Positions 5,250-57,083 of a stretch of 64,000 nt of DNA are shown here, piece after piece; position 1 is the stretch's first letter; each line of letters begins with the position of its first letter. The position numbers were made by a program, and so were the translations under genes. The notes beneath the pieces were generated by a model, which was not told the origin of the DNA, ran no database searches, and was given only the letters and a program-made list of their open reading frames with translations. Source of the stretch: Candidatus Iainarchaeum sp. (GTDB lineage Archaea; Iainarchaeota; Iainarchaeia; Iainarchaeales; GCA-2688035); NCBI GenBank assembly GCA_017610205.1, contig JAFCCL010000002.1:32001-96000 (forward strand), in the 5' to 3' direction.

Positions 5250-6230
5250 TTATGCATACTCCGCAATCGTTTTTTGTCCTTTTTCCCCAAGGGGCCTTGC
5301 TGCTATGCCAAGCCTTCTTTGCACATAGGACGCCAGTTCTCGTTCACTTCCGTGCATTGTTACCACAAGCTTTGGCTCTGACTGCTTTGCGTAATCCAAA
5401 AGCTGCTGGAAGTCTGCGTGGTCGCTTAGTGGAAAAACTTCGTTAAAGCCGTTTCTGAAATTCCAACCAGTTGCCATTCCTGAAAAGATTTTTTTATGGA
5501 TTGAAAATTCAAGAACCTGCAAAAGGTTGTGATTAACAAGTGATGGAGGCATTATCAGAACAGAACTTTCATTAAGGTTGTGGTCAAGCTTTATGAAATT
5601 GCCAAGCTTTGTGCCGTGCTTTTCGTAAACCTTGTTGTTGTCATAAACAGAGTCGTGCACTAGTGGAACAAGGTCGGTGTATTCGTTTACTACTTTGGTA
5701 AGCTCTTGTGCTTTTCCAAGAGAATAGCCTGCAAGAACAACAAAACCCTGTTTGCTTTTTTCTTTTACAAAATTTCCAATCTTTTGGTAAACCTCTTCGC
5801 GGGCGGGAAAAGAAAAACAGGGCTTTCCAAAAGTGCTTTCAAGCACAAGAACATCACATTTTAAAGGCAGTGCCCCTTTTTGAATAATGCTGTCCTGGAC
5901 CTTGAAGTCGTTGGTTACTGCAATTGTTTTGGTTCCTTCAACCAAAACCTGTGCGCTTCCAAGAATGTGGCCTGAGTTGTGAAGGGAAATTGTTGAATCT
6001 CCAAACGAAAGTTTTTTGCCAAATTTTAATTGGGAAAAGTTTGCTTCCTTTTTGTACCTGCTTTTAATTATTGCCTCTGTTTCAGGCGTACAAACATATT
6101 CTGTGACCTTATTTGTGGCAACGTGGTCTGAGTGACCGTGTGAAATTACGGCTTTTTCTGCCTTGCAGCTTGCCTTTGCGTCAATTGGAACGTTTCCTGC
6201 AAAAAGGGCTTTGTTTGAGCGAATTTGCAT
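5250..6230 (-). CDS. Metallo-beta-lactamase/beta-CASP nuclease
   Basis: SHGHSDH, SGHILGS, ESTFG, YSLGKAQE, LSDHAD. Confidence 0.85.
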   Translation of the reverse strand: MQIRSNKALFAGNVPIDAKASCKAEKAVISHGHSDHVATNKVTEYVCTPETEAIIKSRYKKEANFSQLKFGKKLSFGDSTISLHNSGHILGSAQVLVEGTKTIAVTNDFKVQDSIIQKGALPLKCDVLVLESTFGKPCFSFPAREEVYQKIGNFVKEKSKQGFVVLAGYSLGKAQELTKVVNEYTDLVPLVHDSVYDNNKVYEKHGTKLGNFIKLDHNLNESSVLIMPPSLVNHNLLQVLEFSIHKKIFSGMATGWNFRNGFNEVFPLSDHADFQQLLDYAKQSEPKLVVTMHGSERELASYVQRRLGIAARPLGEKGQKTIAEYA

Positions 6231-6299
6231 TGTGATAATAAATAGGGCTTATTGAAATAAAAACCTTGTTAGGTGTTTGTTGGTTTTTTTGAAAAATTC

Positions 6300-42846: not shown

Positions 42847-43263
42847 GTGTGCATGATTTTTTCTGTTTTAACCGGAATGCCATTAAAGGACATTCCAAAA
42901 GAAGCAACACAACTTCACTTTGTAAGACCAGTAAAAAAAGAACTGGTGGAAAAAATACTAAAAAAATGCAAAGGCTTAAGACAGGCAACCATGAGCAAAA
43001 GTTGCCTTGCAAGAATGCCTAAAAAAAACATTGCCATGCTCAAAAAAAAAGGCGTAGTGGTAGAAATTGAAACAAGAGCAGGGCGTCCAATATCAGTTCC
43101 TTTGGAAAAAATGCAACAGGCTTTAGAAATGAGAAAAGATTACCAAAGCCTTAGAGAAGTTGAAAAAGTTACCGGAATTTCAAAAAGCACAGTCCATTAT
43201 TTGGAAAAATACTCCCAAAGGGCAAAGATTAAAAATGGGAAAAGAGTAATTTATTTGAAGTGA
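42847..43263 (+). CDS. DUF1699-like protein with C-terminal HTH
   Basis: LHFVRP...GRP, SLREVEKVTGISKSTVHY. Confidence 0.65.
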   Translation: MCMIFSVLTGMPLKDIPKEATQLHFVRPVKKELVEKILKKCKGLRQATMSKSCLARMPKKNIAMLKKKGVVVEIETRAGRPISVPLEKMQQALEMRKDYQSLREVEKVTGISKSTVHYLEKYSQRAKIKNGKRVIYLK

Positions 43264-49686: not shown

Positions 49687-50412
49687 TTATTTTTTCCCTA
49701 AAATAGATTTGAGCTTTTGAAGTGAAATCCTTTCAAAAGGTTTTTCTTTTTCAACAAAAGCAAAATCCAAACTATTAACATCAAATTTTCTCTTTTCTCC
49801 AAGACCTTTTTCCAAAGCCTTGAGAGCAAGAGCAATTGCAGAATCAAAAGAAAACCCTTCCTTGAAATTCTTTTCAAGAAAATGCATTGCCTCCTTTTTT
49901 CCCTTTCCAATTGTAATTGCAGTATATTCTGCCAGTGCCCCACTTGGCTCTGTTTCAAAAAGCCTTGAGCCTGTCTGGTCAACTCCGCCAATAATGAATG
50001 AAACCCCAAAAGGCCTCATTCCAGCATACTGGGTAAATAATTGTTTTATTCCTGAAACCTCTTTTACAAGTGTTTCAACCTGAATGTCTTCCTCGTAGTA
50101 CATTTGATTTTCCTGTGCTTCTTTTCGTGCAAGCTGAACAAGCCTTCTTGCATCTCCGACCAAACCAGAGGAAATTGCTCCAATGTGGTGGTCTATTTTG
50201 AAAATTTTTTCAATGCTGTATGGCTTCAAAAGCTTGCTTGTAACATTTTTGTCTGCTCCAAAAAGCACACCGTTGTTGTAAGCCATTGCCAGTCCAAGCG
50301 TTCCCTGTTCCACAATCTTGCTTGCGTATTCAACCTGATACAGCCTTCCATCAGGACTAAACATTGTACTAACTCTGTCATATGCACTGCTTTTTCTAGA
50401 ACCAGGATACAT
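49687..50412 (-). CDS. psmA: Proteasome alpha subunit
   Basis: YDR..TMFSPDGRLYQVEYA, SGLVGDAR, RPFGVS. Confidence 0.96.
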   Translation of the reverse strand: MYPGSRKSSAYDRVSTMFSPDGRLYQVEYASKIVEQGTLGLAMAYNNGVLFGADKNVTSKLLKPYSIEKIFKIDHHIGAISSGLVGDARRLVQLARKEAQENQMYYEEDIQVETLVKEVSGIKQLFTQYAGMRPFGVSFIIGGVDQTGSRLFETEPSGALAEYTAITIGKGKKEAMHFLEKNFKEGFSFDSAIALALKALEKGLGEKRKFDVNSLDFAFVEKEKPFERISLQKLKSILGKK

Positions 50413-50587
50413 TAAAAATCCCTCAAAAAATTCCTCTTCTTTCTCTTTTTCTCTACTTTATAATTTTAATAACGGAAGTTATAAAAAGGTTGTTAAAAAG
50501 CTACAAAACACAAGAAAACCAGCAATTTCCAACAATAAGAAAGATTAATTAAAGCAGAAGGGATGAAATTATTAAAGGAGAGAAAAA

Positions 50588-51727
50588 ATGACTGCAAAGA
50601 AGGTAAAAAAAAGAGCAACAAAAGGAACAAAACGCAGAAGACGTTATCTAACAGAAAGAAAAGCAGCAATGCAAATGAACACTATTTACAATATGTTCGA
50701 AAAAGGAAAAACAGTAAAGCAGATTAGAAAAAAGCTTGGAATGACATCCGGAAAGTTTAGTTTATATGTAAGTGTCTTAAGAGAAGGCACTAAAAGAACA
50801 AAACCGTCATTCATTCCACCAAAAGGAGTTTACAATTGGAGCAGGGCAAAAGCAAGAAGAGTAGAAAACCTTATAGAATATGCAACAAAAATCATTAAGG
50901 GAGAAAAAGCTGCTAAAGCCAAACAAAGAAAGCCAGGTGTTGTGCCATGGGCATTGCCAAAAACAGTACATAGAAAAATAACTACAGCGCTGATGAAAGA
51001 CCCCTTCAGAAGCAGCAACGCAATATCAAAAGTGGAAGGAGCTAGCCCTAACACGGTTGTAAGGCAAAGAAGAATACTTGAAAGCAAAGGACTAATTCCA
51101 GTAGTAAGCAGAAGCAAGATAATGAAAAATGCAGAGAGAAAGCCTGAGAGGACAATAGATTATTTAGACAAAAAACGCAGGAAAACAATACTGGAGGAAA
51201 AGAAAAAGGCAATTGAATCAACGGCAAAACGTCTCTACAGAGAAAACAGAGTTGCGTTTGATGGAACAGATGCCCTGCCAGAACAAATACCTGAAGAAAT
51301 AGCTGAAAGAATGGAGTGGAGGCTAAGAACATTTAATCCAAAGAACTGGAAGGGTTCAGAAAAAGTTAAAGTAAACAAGTTCTTTTATTCTGCACTAAGC
51401 AGCATTAAATTCGATATAAGAAGAACTGCTTGGAAACAATATTCAAGGCAAAAATTGGAATCGCTTGAAACAGGAATGGAAGAAAAACAAGACAGGAAAC
51501 GTACTCTACAGGCAAAACCAGAATCCAAAGAAATCACAGTAAAACAACTGGAAATGATAAGCGATGGATTAAAATTAAATCTTTTGGAAAAGGCAGTTTT
51601 GTTTGGACACGCAGCAGGCTTAACTGGGAGCAAAATAGCAGAAGTAACAGGATACAGTGAAGCAAGAATCAATCAAAAAAAATTCGAGTATCAAAAGAGA
51701 ATACAGAAAATAATTTCAAAAAAGTGA
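50588..51727 (+). CDS. Basic multi-HTH protein with degenerate sigma-70 region 2 and region 4 like domains
   Basis: IESTAKRLY...RTFNP...FFYSAL..IKFDIRR (sigma2-like); LNLLEKAVL...GLTGSKIAEVTGYSEARINQ (sigma4-like); AAGGAG upstream. Confidence 0.6.
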   Translation: MTAKKVKKRATKGTKRRRRYLTERKAAMQMNTIYNMFEKGKTVKQIRKKLGMTSGKFSLYVSVLREGTKRTKPSFIPPKGVYNWSRAKARRVENLIEYATKIIKGEKAAKAKQRKPGVVPWALPKTVHRKITTALMKDPFRSSNAISKVEGASPNTVVRQRRILESKGLIPVVSRSKIMKNAERKPERTIDYLDKKRRKTILEEKKKAIESTAKRLYRENRVAFDGTDALPEQIPEEIAERMEWRLRTFNPKNWKGSEKVKVNKFFYSALSSIKFDIRRTAWKQYSRQKLESLETGMEEKQDRKRTLQAKPESKEITVKQLEMISDGLKLNLLEKAVLFGHAAGLTGSKIAEVTGYSEARINQKKFEYQKRIQKIISKK

Positions 51728-51734
51728 ACGCTGT

Positions 51735-52091
51735 TCACCTGCCTTTCAAAGCCTTCAAAGTGCCGCTTGTTTTCAAAGTTTTTGCACCAGAAATTCCATT
51801 CAGGGTTTTTTTTACTTTTTCAAGGGATGCAAGTTTGCACCTCATAATCCCCTGACCTGTTTCTGGAATGAATTCAATAAACCAGGTTCCAAGTTCTTTT
51901 CTTTCATCCTGTGGAAATTGTCCAATAATCAAATCAAAAGCTTGCTTTCCTGTTTTTGGAATGGGGGTAAGGGTGAATAAAATATAACGCCTTTTTGGCC
52001 TCTGGCTTTTCTTTGCAAGTTTCCTTCCCTGTACCTTTTTTGCCTTTTGCTTTATTGGAGCAACCACATAGTCCTTATTTTCTTCACTCAT
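51735..52091 (-). CDS. RNase P protein Pop5/Rpp14 homolog
   Basis: RPKRRYILF, GIMRC, TSGTLKAL; superoperon position. Confidence 0.85.
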   Translation of the reverse strand: MSEENKDYVVAPIKQKAKKVQGRKLAKKSQRPKRRYILFTLTPIPKTGKQAFDLIIGQFPQDERKELGTWFIEFIPETGQGIMRCKLASLEKVKKTLNGISGAKTLKTSGTLKALKGR

Positions 52092-55451: not shown

Positions 55452-57083
55452 TTATTTTTTTTTCCTGTTCTTTTTGCCCATTTTTTCAATGTTTGAACCT
55501 ATTGCTTTTGCAAAGTTTTTTTCAAAGGTGTCAAGCTCTGAAATTTTTTTGTCGATTTTTTCTGTTCTTAGGGCAAATTGTCTTTCAATTACCTGGCTTT
55601 GGTGATTCAGGTTTTTTATCCCTTGGTTGAACTTTTCAGCATTCTGCTGTATGGCTTCAACAAACTGTGCTTTGAATTCGTTTAGCTCCTGCATTTGCCT
55701 TTTAAATTCAGCTGGTTTAAAGTCAATTGTAATCTGATTGTGCAGTTCTTCCATTGCTTTAAGTTTTTTCTCAAGTTTTTTATCCAAAGAAAACCTTTCA
55801 AATTTTGCCTGGTGTTCAACTGCTTCAATGCTTTCCCTTTGCTCTTTTTCAAACCGGTCTCTTATTTCACGCAAATCTTTTGAACGCCTCTTGCTTTCGG
55901 CAATAAAATCAATTGATTTCTCTTCAAGCATTTTTGCAACACTGTTGTTAGCTTCTTTTACAAGACCTTCAACAATCTGATTTTCAAGCTGCAGGGTCTT
56001 GTTTATTCTTGAATCCATTTCAATAAGCTTTTTGTTCATTTCTTCAACAAGTTGCTTGCTCTCAGTTCTGCTTTTTATAAGCTCTGTGTTTAGTGATGCA
56101 ACAATACTCTCTTTTATTTTATTTATTTCTTCAAGCATTCTGGAAAGGCTTTGTGCTTCTTTTTTTGACCTTTCTTCCGCTTCTTTCAGGGAAGTTATTT
56201 GAGATTCAATATGTTTGTTTATGCCCCTCATTTCATTAAGCTTTAATTCAATCATGCCTGCAAAACTTTTTGCTTTGGCTTCAAGCTCTGCATCAACCTT
56301 GCTTACCAACAAAACACGTTGGCTGTCAAACAAAACCTTTATTTTAGCCATTTCCGTTTTGTTTGCCTTAGCAACCTTTTTGTCAAGCACATCATCAAGC
56401 TCATTTTTGATTTTGTTCATTTCAGCAAGCTTTTGGCTTACAGTTGCCATAATGCCTTTTTCCCAAAGCTTGCTTATTGCAATGTCTTCAACAAGATGCT
56501 GTTTTTTTTCTTCCGAAGCAAGAGGTTGTGTTTTTATGCCTGTAAATGATTTTTCCTCAAATGGCTTTGAAACAGGTGCTTCTGGAAAAAATTTTGCAGG
56601 TTTAGTTACAGGTTCAAACATACGGTGTTCGCCTGTCATAGCCGCTGCCTTTTCTTCAAGAAATTTTAAGGGCTCTTCTTCTGATTCATTGGTATGGTCT
56701 TTTTTTCCAATTTCTTCAAGGCTAAGCCCTTCAAAAATTTCCTTTTCTTTTACAGGTTCCTTTTTTTCCGGTTCAACCGCTTCTGCTGCAAGCTCTTCTG
56801 TTGCCTTTTCCCTTTCCTCTTCAACCTCTTTTGCCTTTTCCTCTTTTTCTTTCACGGTCTTGGCTGACTTTTTCTTAAAATGGCTGAGAAAAGGAACTTC
56901 TTTTGCCACAGCCTTTTTCGAAGGCTCTGCCTGTTCAGGTTGTTTGGCTTCTGCAATGAGCTTTTTGGCATTCTCTTGGTCAATGCCAACTTCTTTCAAA
57001 TTTAACACGATTTCCTTGTTTGAAACATTCAATGCGATAAGTTCTTTAATGCTTTTTAACAAAAGCTGTTTTTTGGAAACCAT
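55452..57083 (-). CDS. Long coiled-coil protein
   Basis: Small N-terminal helical domain, E/K/P linker, LWEKGI motif, ~330 aa coiled coil. Confidence 0.8.
   Translation of the reverse strand: MVSKKQLLLKSIKELIALNVSNKEIVLNLKEVGIDQENAKKLIAEAKQPEQAEPSKKAVAKEVPFLSHFKKKSAKTVKEKEEKAKEVEEEREKATEELAAEAVEPEKKEPVKEKEIFEGLSLEEIGKKDHTNESEEEPLKFLEEKAAAMTGEHRMFEPVTKPAKFFPEAPVSKPFEEKSFTGIKTQPLASEEKKQHLVEDIAISKLWEKGIMATVSQKLAEMNKIKNELDDVLDKKVAKANKTEMAKIKVLFDSQRVLLVSKVDAELEAKAKSFAGMIELKLNEMRGINKHIESQITSLKEAEERSKKEAQSLSRMLEEINKIKESIVASLNTELIKSRTESKQLVEEMNKKLIEMDSRINKTLQLENQIVEGLVKEANNSVAKMLEEKSIDFIAESKRRSKDLREIRDRFEKEQRESIEAVEHQAKFERFSLDKKLEKKLKAMEELHNQITIDFKPAEFKRQMQELNEFKAQFVEAIQQNAEKFNQGIKNLNHQSQVIERQFALRTEKIDKKISELDTFEKNFAKAIGSNIEKMGKKNRKKK

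Follow-up and report, generated by a model that had tools for sequence, protein, structure and literature searches.

The 64,000-nt stretch of the Candidatus Iainarchaeum sp. genome analyzed here (contig JAFCCL010000002.1, positions 32,001 to 96,000; hereafter the window) carries a gene whose 379-amino-acid (aa) product ends in what is very likely a highly diverged sigma-70-family module. Residues ~190–379 appear to form a module of the two-domain extracytoplasmic function (ECF) type, in which a sigma2-like domain is followed by a sigma4-type helix-turn-helix (HTH). Profile comparisons and a predicted structure show this sigma2-sigma4 descent as remote homology and likeness of fold; no formal family threshold is reached. 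The N-terminal half adds two further DNA-binding units, and we favor, with moderate confidence, a reading of the whole protein as a lineage-specific DNA-binding transcription regulator. The gene (50588..51727, + strand) and the four modules of its product are as follows.

50588..51727, + strand: sigma-like gene for the four-module protein, ATG start, 379 aa; 37 relatives, aligned
50645..50797, + strand: module 1, LuxR/GerE-type (sigma4-like) HTH, residues ~20–70, 3' of the K/R-rich N-terminus
50801..50902, + strand: linker motif FIPPKG..NW....AKARRV.NLIE.A, residues ~72–105, no family match
50945..51103, + strand: module 2, winged HTH of the Lrp/AsnC/MarR type, residues ~120–172, from HTH_24 and PDB profile matches
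51155..51490, + strand: module 3, sigma2-like helical domain, residues ~190–301, with helices at 195–204, 206–219, 233–247, and 258–301
51536..51724, + strand: module 4, sigma-70 region 4 type HTH, residues ~317–379, from hhalign, Pfam counts and PDB profile matches

The open reading frame (ORF) had 37 relatives at E ≤ 1e-3 and 14 at E ≤ 1e-30 among 1.84 billion cluster representatives, and is therefore a real gene and not a chance frame. The family alignment used below comprises 32 members. All strings quoted in the initial annotation (ILEEKKKAIESTAKRLY, EQIPEEIAERMEWRLRTFNP, NKFFYSALSSIKFDIRR, SLE, and LNLLEKAVL...GLTGSKIAEVTGYSEARINQ) are present in the translation, and the K/R-rich leader described there is found as MTAKKVKKRATKGTKRRRRY. 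A word-indexed homologue search with the 379-aa protein returned only itself and one relative, and the seven closest members, used as patterns, detected no further relative in genome contigs or in viral contigs (IMG/VR). A PDB sequence search with the single protein gave no matches at E ≤ 10. Among 21 cluster members listed, two were named, one as a "CsgD family" and one as an "Lrp family" regulator, and none as a sigma factor. Literature searches on sigma factors and sigma-like proteins in archaea and DPANN turned up nothing on the present family.

Evidence for a Sigma2-Sigma4 Module

The structure of residues 183–379 was predicted with AlphaFold2 (AF2) from 32 aligned sequences. The model has a mean predicted local distance difference test (pLDDT) score of 91.6 and consists of four helices, a disordered linker and four more helices, with module 3 at a block pLDDT of 90–98. 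We take this helix order to be that of ECF sigma factors, by comparison with sigmaE. When AF2 was run on the single sequence, the sigma2-like part was poorly predicted (block pLDDT 36–62), while module 1 reached 73–84.

In Foldseek searches with the aligned model, sigma factors predominated among the matches. By entry description, about 40 of the 48 PDB rows were sigma-70-family chains (SigL, RpoE, BldN, SigH, FliA, SigA, and others), with 170–240 columns aligned, E values of 0.13–1 and probabilities of up to 0.82. These rows covered nearly the whole 197-residue query, whereas KorA, a plain HTH match, aligned over 59 columns. The top match in the BFVD library was a phage sigma factor (E 2.4e-3, probability 1.00). 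All of the top five BFVD rows had a probability of 1.00, three being named phage sigma factors and two being without a name; 20 of the 30 named rows were sigma factors, and the best TM-score was 0.47. Over both libraries the alignments to sigma factors spanned 150–240 columns. The AF2 model and the Foldseek lists thus both place a sigma2 fold ahead of a sigma4 fold in one chain.

Profile-profile comparison with hhalign was made against a reference of 29 sequences, i.e., five Escherichia coli sigma factors and 24 archaeal sigma-like ORFs from related genomes that had been picked by a near-full-length match to a sigma hidden Markov model (HMM). The C-terminal half of the family matched this reference with a probability of 97.0% (E 9.9e-11, 170 columns), and with 96.4% (E 1.2e-9, 152 columns) after removal of four sequences that are also detected by the family's own HMM. 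The whole half scored 66.8–72.7 and sigma4 alone 48.9–49.2; a reversed query scored 14.9 and 10 column shuffles 8.0–12.3. For the sigma2-like part alone the score was 23.1 (P 0.0046), as opposed to 14.3 for the reversed query and 7.9–11.7 in 10 shuffles.

The sigma-70 family model TIGR02937, which has a curated cut-off of 42.9 bits, recognizes the family only in part. The target itself scored 12 bits (E 0.12) with hmmscan and 17.4 bits (E 0.002, profile 41–163) in the genome search, both under the cut-off, and 25 of the 32 members matched at E ≤ 0.1. When 10 members were scanned singly against NCBIfam, five gave an unbroken TIGR02937 match that extends from region 2 to region 4: P0006, which gave the best match (residues 281–419 on profile 29–164, E 1.1e-6, 28.3 bits), P0009 (residues 196–371, profile 1–161), P0011, P0010, and P0008, the last of which also matched FliA_WhiG. 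For four of the 10, TIGR02937 gave no sigma match, and one matched by its N-terminal HTH only. An intermediate is provided by a 229-aa protein of the congener G002 (L095), which passes TIGR02937 with 65.4 bits and is colinear with positions 15–186 of the family C-terminal HMM at 27.9 bits. In addition, 23 of the 30 named ESM neighbors of residues 186–305 alone belong to the Sigma70_r2 set (top score 0.95).

The region 4 part is the more readily recognized of the two domains. Module 4 matched the sigma reference with 95% in hhalign, and WhiG and FliA region 4 matched family profile positions 324–361 in the PDB profile search. Pfam Sigma70_r4 was found in 12 and Sigma70_r4_2 in 9 of the 32 members (best E 1.8e-9), counts that do not specify which HTH unit was matched. 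In module 4 of the target alone, Pfam found only HTH_23 (residues 336–361, E 0.0027).

Several results weigh against the assignment, above all against its sigma2 part. Taken alone, this part was weak in hhalign, from 7.6% (P 0.0046) to 46.6%, and it fell to 0.2% against the thin reference of five E. coli sigma factors; with these five, or with three of the genome's own paralogues added, region 4 alone was seen and no sigma2-like match. As many as 24 of the 29 reference sequences are archaeal sigma-like ORFs and not tested bacterial sigma factors. An HMM of the sigma2-like part found none of the genome's own sigma-like ORFs, a genome search with Pfam Sigma70_r2 (PF04542) at E ≤ 10 gave three matches of which none was at the target, and Sigma70_r2 is absent from the list of 25 families obtained for the 32 members (the last one listed occurs in two members). 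The ESM calibration does not extend to parts of proteins such as residues 186–305. Finally, Foldseek gave no match at E ≤ 0.001 in either the PDB or BFVD, and the TM-scores were low (0.2–0.47). The latter may be due to a free orientation of the sigma2-like and sigma4 domains relative to each other.

The initial annotation had read the C-terminal ~185 aa as sigma-70 region 2 followed by region 4. AF2, Foldseek, hhalign, ESM and the TIGR02937 matches of relatives bear out this order, with the reservation that sigma2 is faint by sequence and that the cut-offs are missed. The outcome named there as refuting this reading, a C-terminus with nothing beyond a generic LuxR/GerE-type HTH, was not observed, as the relation to sigma-70 factors extends over both sigma2 and sigma4. 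The core-binding motif DLxQE had also been called eroded. That was a reading by eye only; the motif is altered, but hhalign pairs DVVQE of RpoE with QIPEE, and acidic residues remain.

The N-Terminal Half

The two additional HTH-like segments proposed for the N-terminal half were both recovered, the first by a LuxR/GerE-type profile match and the second by an HTH_24 match over its cut-off. Positions 13–72 of the 32-member family profile match DesR (E 4e-6), VraR, GerE, and NarL in the PDB profile search. Among the 32 members, Pfam found HTH_23 in 18, HTH_24 in 17 and GerE in 15, beside the Sigma70_r4 families counted above, and for module 1 of the target alone it found no match. The linker motif that follows has no family match, and its residues P77, P78, K79, and W84 are invariant in the seven closest members. 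Module 2 is matched by Pfam HTH_24 at residues 128–170 (E 3.8e-5, 23.6 bits; cut-off 21.9), and AdcR and LrpA match profile positions 107–160. Domain scans of the target and the 32 members revealed neither a RAM domain nor another ligand domain.

The LuxR-like N-terminal HTH occurs as eight matched stretches in P0033 (887 aa) and is duplicated in P0006 (426 aa). Judged from these sequences, it behaves as a repeatable module.

The Locus and the Insertion

The gene stands antisense inside an exosome/proteasome gene row, as initially annotated, and comparison with congeners confirmed this position. In the following, G000 denotes the window's own genome (assembly of 1.37 Mb, 24 contigs, 92% complete) and G001–G006 its congeners.

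49687..50412, − strand: psmA, proteasome alpha subunit (Pfam Proteasome 4.9e-52), divergent from the insert
50500..51734, + strand: inserted segment of ~1.24 kb, one gene with its own 5' region, without counterpart in G004
50537..50582, + strand: likely promoter and ribosome-binding region, with a block that includes the palindrome TTAATTAA (50545–50552) and with GGAGAG (50577–50582) just 5' of the ATG
51735..52091, − strand: Pop5/Rpp14-like RNase P protein gene, 118 aa, weak matches to Pfam Rpp14/Pop5 (E 0.0067) and NF002986, RNase P component 2 (E 3.2e-4), both under their cut-offs

The Pop5-like gene is convergent with the sigma-like gene, with 7 nt between the two stop codons, and its orthologues are found at the same place in five congeners. 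After psmA the minus strand continues with SBDS, Rrp4, Rrp41, Rrp42, L37ae, and Pcc1; beyond the Pop5-like gene lie an EamA transporter, an HD protein and L15e. The claim that pop5 and psmA are normally adjacent held for four of the five congeners examined (G003, G004, G005, and G006), in which the two genes are direct neighbors on the same strand and the gap contains no ORF of at least 60 aa matching any query. The fifth, G001, carries a sigma-like gene at the same site as the window, cut by a contig break.

The closest relative is G004, whose psmA is 92% identical. Its DNA can be aligned with the window up to 50499, in the psmA upstream region, and then again only from the stop of the Pop5-like gene; about 1.24 kb (50500–51734) are therefore extra in the window. 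The comparison shows that one gene, together with its own putative promoter, was inserted between psmA and the Pop5-like gene before G000 and G001 diverged. A 19-nt block, TAAGAAAGATTAATTAAAG, lying ~35–50 nt ahead of the start codon, is identical upstream of the G001 copy, and the 5' sequence around it can be aligned as well. We infer that this block belongs to the promoter region, in which it may be a putative TATA/BRE element or an operator. A scan of the 5' region for sigma-70-type promoters gave no match.

When the insert was scanned for repeats and terminators, neither terminal repeats nor an intrinsic terminator came up, and no integrase or transposase catalytic domain was found in or near it. 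By eye, a short A-rich direct repeat, AAAAG (5–6 nt), is seen at both ends of the insert (50495–50500 and 51718–51724), and it occurs once at the empty site of G004 (L036, ~6225–6232). This repeat could be a target duplication, microhomology or chance. Between the 5' regions of psmA and the insert there is a 25-nt inverted repeat (50446–50470 and 50563–50587, 80% complementary); the A/T-rich sequences of promoter and ribosome site are therefore alike in the two divergent genes, and the repeat may be a chance product in DNA of 37% G+C.

Distribution, Divergence, and Relocation of the Family

At E ≤ 1e-8 the family profile matched 14 of the 215 genomes of the phylum that were searched. Besides the window's own genome, these matches comprise 12 of the 22 genomes of its taxonomic family and one of four in a second family. 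The family was not found in the remaining genomes among the 215, many of which are incomplete. Within the genus, members stand at four different loci in five genomes:

G000 (window) and G001: between the Pop5-like gene and psmA
G003: next to the gene orthologous to window 42847..43263
G004: flanked by orthologues of genes that G000 carries on other contigs
G006: likewise flanked by orthologues of genes from other G000 contigs, at a site different from that in G004

The protein of the G001 copy, although at the same site, is only 32–36% identical to that of the window, while the flanking proteins are 63–82% identical, and the sigma-like gene therefore evolves much faster than its surroundings. 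In a quick tree the window protein pairs with P0003 (support 99), the G001 copy stands weakly beside them (support 80), and the G003 copy falls in the other main clade.

Short relatives of 242–283 aa retain the N-terminal half together with the sigma4 HTH, the sigma2-like part being absent. They were found in three genomes:

G005:C77:15363-16835
G007:C17:2447-3121
G015:C1:162812-163570

In G005 two short-variant genes stand in tandem. The existence of such natural variants implies that the HTH units can work without the sigma2-like domain. The fast evolution and the changing position of the gene fit an accessory regulator and not a core factor.

Transcription Machinery and Other Sigma-Like Proteins of the Genome

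Archaeal RNA polymerase (RNAP) starts transcription with TBP and TFB, and bacterial sigma factors and TBP/TFB are textbook alternatives. The genome of the window had a single Rpb1_1 match, an 872-aa frame of archaeal type, with no bacterial-type polymerase, and a single TFB, in agreement with the archaeal, DPANN-type setting initially assigned to the gene. Beside the gene described here, five further sigma-70-like ORFs with near-full TIGR02937 coverage were found outside the window:

C10:69934-70548 (L014 1372..2280, − strand, 302 aa)
C11:9906-10412 (L015)
C17:86791-87300 and C17:85240-85770 (L017, L018)
C16:114950-115570 (L016)

With 66.7 bits the C10 ORF passes the TIGR02937 cut-off, and it passes that of Pfam Sigma70_r2 too. 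Its protein reads like a group-3 sigma factor (FEPSQGIKFNTFAY). A word-indexed homologue search with this canonical sigma-like protein of the genome returned only itself. The two C17 copies share their contig with TFB. On C16, ~19 kb past the end of the window, a sigma-like gene with an N-terminal HTH (L016 1225..2151) is interrupted by one in-frame TAA, leaving a region 2-like ORF of 195 aa and a region 4 ORF of 106 aa; a sequencing error, a pseudogene or a protein made in two pieces could account for this. Sigma-like ORFs over the curated TIGR02937 cut-off were found in 17 of 61 related genomes.

The coiled-coil of Rpo1N (residues ~223–270) is nearly invariant in 25 relatives. A complex prediction of Rpo1N 1–345 (25-row alignment) with residues 183–307 of the sigma-like protein gave a score of 0.00, which, from a run without controls, speaks neither for nor against binding. 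Relatives of the archaeal Rpo1N are also carried by four records (L100, L101, L103, and L106) with titles naming Chloroflexi/Chloroflexota (the two nearest, 94% identical), Falkowbacteria, and Thaumarchaeota. These labels are probably wrong, as they do not fit the archaeal gene carried.

A kinship with TFB/TFIIB was considered as well. TFB core matched the family profile weakly (E 0.0014), and TFIIB-containing entries stood at Foldseek ranks 24–48. Alignment to the genome's own TFB with hhalign gave 2–14% over 27–42 columns, confined to the HTH of the second cyclin repeat, i.e., a generic HTH likeness. TFB/TFIIB proteins combine a Zn ribbon with two cyclin repeats, and the kinship was rejected.

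Comparison With Known Systems

The closest counterparts are group 4 (ECF) sigma-70 factors such as E. coli RpoE, Mycobacterium tuberculosis SigL and SigH and the phage ECF-like sigma factors, which likewise consist of sigma2, a linker and sigma4 without sigma3. They share their helix order with the target, the family is colinear with TIGR02937 and the sigma profile, and these factors are the best structural matches. Unlike them, the target lies far below the curated cut-offs and is altered in its region 2.2 motif, and it has a 185-residue N-terminal extension with two extra DNA-binding domains, which is outside the ECF definition. ECF sigma factors usually have a co-encoded anti-sigma factor, whereas none stands beside the target gene, its neighbors being psmA and the Pop5-like gene, and the host has no bacterial RNAP.

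Sigma-70 genes (fam00359) have been described in DPANN genomes, especially Woesearchaeota, by Castelle et al. (2021; PMC8204110). According to these authors, mis-binning was excluded, no anti-sigma factors were found, and the controlling mechanism is unclear. The genes described there resemble the present one in being of bacterial type, in occurring in DPANN genomes and in having no anti-sigma partners. The present family differs in remaining below the sigma cut-offs and in its N-terminal HTH extension, and while the emphasis of that study is on Woesearchaeota, its relatives are titled Iainarchaeum/Diapherotrites. Sigma-like genes in DPANN are thus already on record.

One-component regulators of the LuxR/GerE/CsgD and Lrp/AsnC/MarR types match modules 1 and 2 and the HTH of module 4. 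From this resemblance in sequence, the protein likely has DNA binding activity as in LuxR/Lrp-type regulators. It differs from them in having no receiver, ligand-binding or RAM domain, and in holding three HTH units and a sigma2-like domain in one chain.

Possible Functions

The reading of the protein as a lineage-specific DNA-binding transcription regulator builds on four modules: a LuxR/GerE-type HTH, a winged helix of the Lrp/MarR type, a diverged sigma2-like domain and a sigma4-type HTH. Modules 3 and 4 very likely derive jointly from a two-domain (ECF-like) factor of the sigma-70 family, and the gene entered the lineage of G000 and G001 as a lone insert that brought a putative promoter of its own. 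The three HTH units may bind a composite DNA site, through which the protein would modulate transcription by the cell's sole RNAP, the archaeal one started by TBP/TFB. The sigma2-like domain could then serve as a contact surface for protein or DNA and not as a classical bacterial core-binding region. Its retention in most members argues for a role more specific than this, and so tells against the proposal.

The single gene with clean borders, absent as an insert from the nearest sister genome, could also be read as a mobile or selfish cassette, i.e., a regulator from a virus, plasmid or transposon, with a phage-type sigma or a transposase-type DNA-binding domain, that shifts from site to site to the benefit of the element, or of what is left of it, and not of the host. 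The four loci in five congeners and the low identity of the G001 copy at the same site compared with its flanking proteins would fit such a cassette, as would the phage sigma factors that are the best structural matches and the weak matches of some members to the HTH of IS630 and IS481 transposases. The AAAAG seen by eye at both junctions points the same way, but a short A-rich repeat is expected by chance at this G+C content, and the insert and its vicinity hold no integrase, transposase catalytic domain or terminal repeats. The pattern searches found no relative in viral contigs; scans with PHROGs and PADLOC for phage and defence genes gave HTH-level matches only, with none for the target in PHROGs, and members at other loci neighbor housekeeping genes. 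We consider a cassette unlikely.

About as unlikely, in our view, is that the protein serves the archaeal RNAP as a genuine specificity factor of the sigma type. Its sigma2-like domain would then attach to the clamp coiled-coil of Rpo1N, and promoter elements would be read by the HTH units, either together with TBP/TFB or in their place. The beta' clamp helices of bacteria are homologues of this archaeal coiled-coil, and the near invariance of the coiled-coil among the relatives speaks for such a factor. So do the two-domain sigma module kept in most members and the presence of five more sigma-like ORFs in a genome that has an archaeal RNAP only, with such ORFs over the cut-off in other related genomes. 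Against it, some variants lack the sigma2-like part, the motif of region 2.2 is, by eye, not conserved as in sigma factors, and the family is found in essentially one taxonomic family, with a variable position and fast divergence unlike those of a basal factor. We know of no case of a sigma factor working with an archaeal RNAP. Castelle et al. (2021) leave the role of the DPANN sigma genes open. More narrowly, a sigma-derived module might have been recruited to the archaeal machinery in this one DPANN family, with promoters chosen by the three HTH units and the sigma2-like domain gripping the clamp coiled-coil of Rpo1N, all encoded by a fast-evolving, relocating gene; this we regard as improbable.

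It is similarly doubtful that the sigma2 likeness is spurious, in which case the protein would be a regulator with several HTH units and a helical spacer, its kinship to sigma factors being limited to the LuxR/sigma4-type HTH at the C-terminus. The failure of all curated sigma2 tests for the target, the low hhalign probabilities of the sigma2-like part alone and the Foldseek E values above 0.001 are in line with this, and all-helical domains attract false structural matches. However, four separate lines give the same colinear sigma2-sigma4 mapping. The whole C-terminal half also outscores sigma4 alone, the sigma2-like part outscores its reversed and shuffled versions, and the Foldseek alignments to sigma factors cover nearly all 197 residues as opposed to the ~60 columns of KorA.

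An effector acting on the RNAP of a bacterial partner cell, as proposed in the initial annotation, is very improbable: the bacterial type of the module and the presumed life of DPANN archaea on other cells would fit it, but the translation shows no hydrophobic N-terminal signal (by eye, with no predictor run), no secretion genes are seen nearby, three further DNA-binding domains would be superfluous for an anti-polymerase effector, and the known or proposed hosts are mostly archaea according to PMC8204110.

Elsewhere in the window, a K/E-rich 543-aa ORF (55452..57083, − strand) has, by eye, the look of a long coiled-coil protein.

Significance

The present family adds to the archaeal sigma-like proteins a diverged form that is missed by annotation pipelines, an unusual fusion of a sigma module to two further DNA-binding domains, and a natural series of presence, absence and relocation among sister genomes. 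The protein is small and suits a direct test of whether a sigma2-type domain acts on an archaeal polymerase or belongs to a plain DNA-binding regulator. If it is a regulator only, it would extend the known set of archaeal transcription factors modestly. The interest would be high only if the sigma2-like domain engages the archaeal polymerase; if this is true, the protein would be a sigma-like specificity factor operating on a polymerase of the TBP/TFB type.

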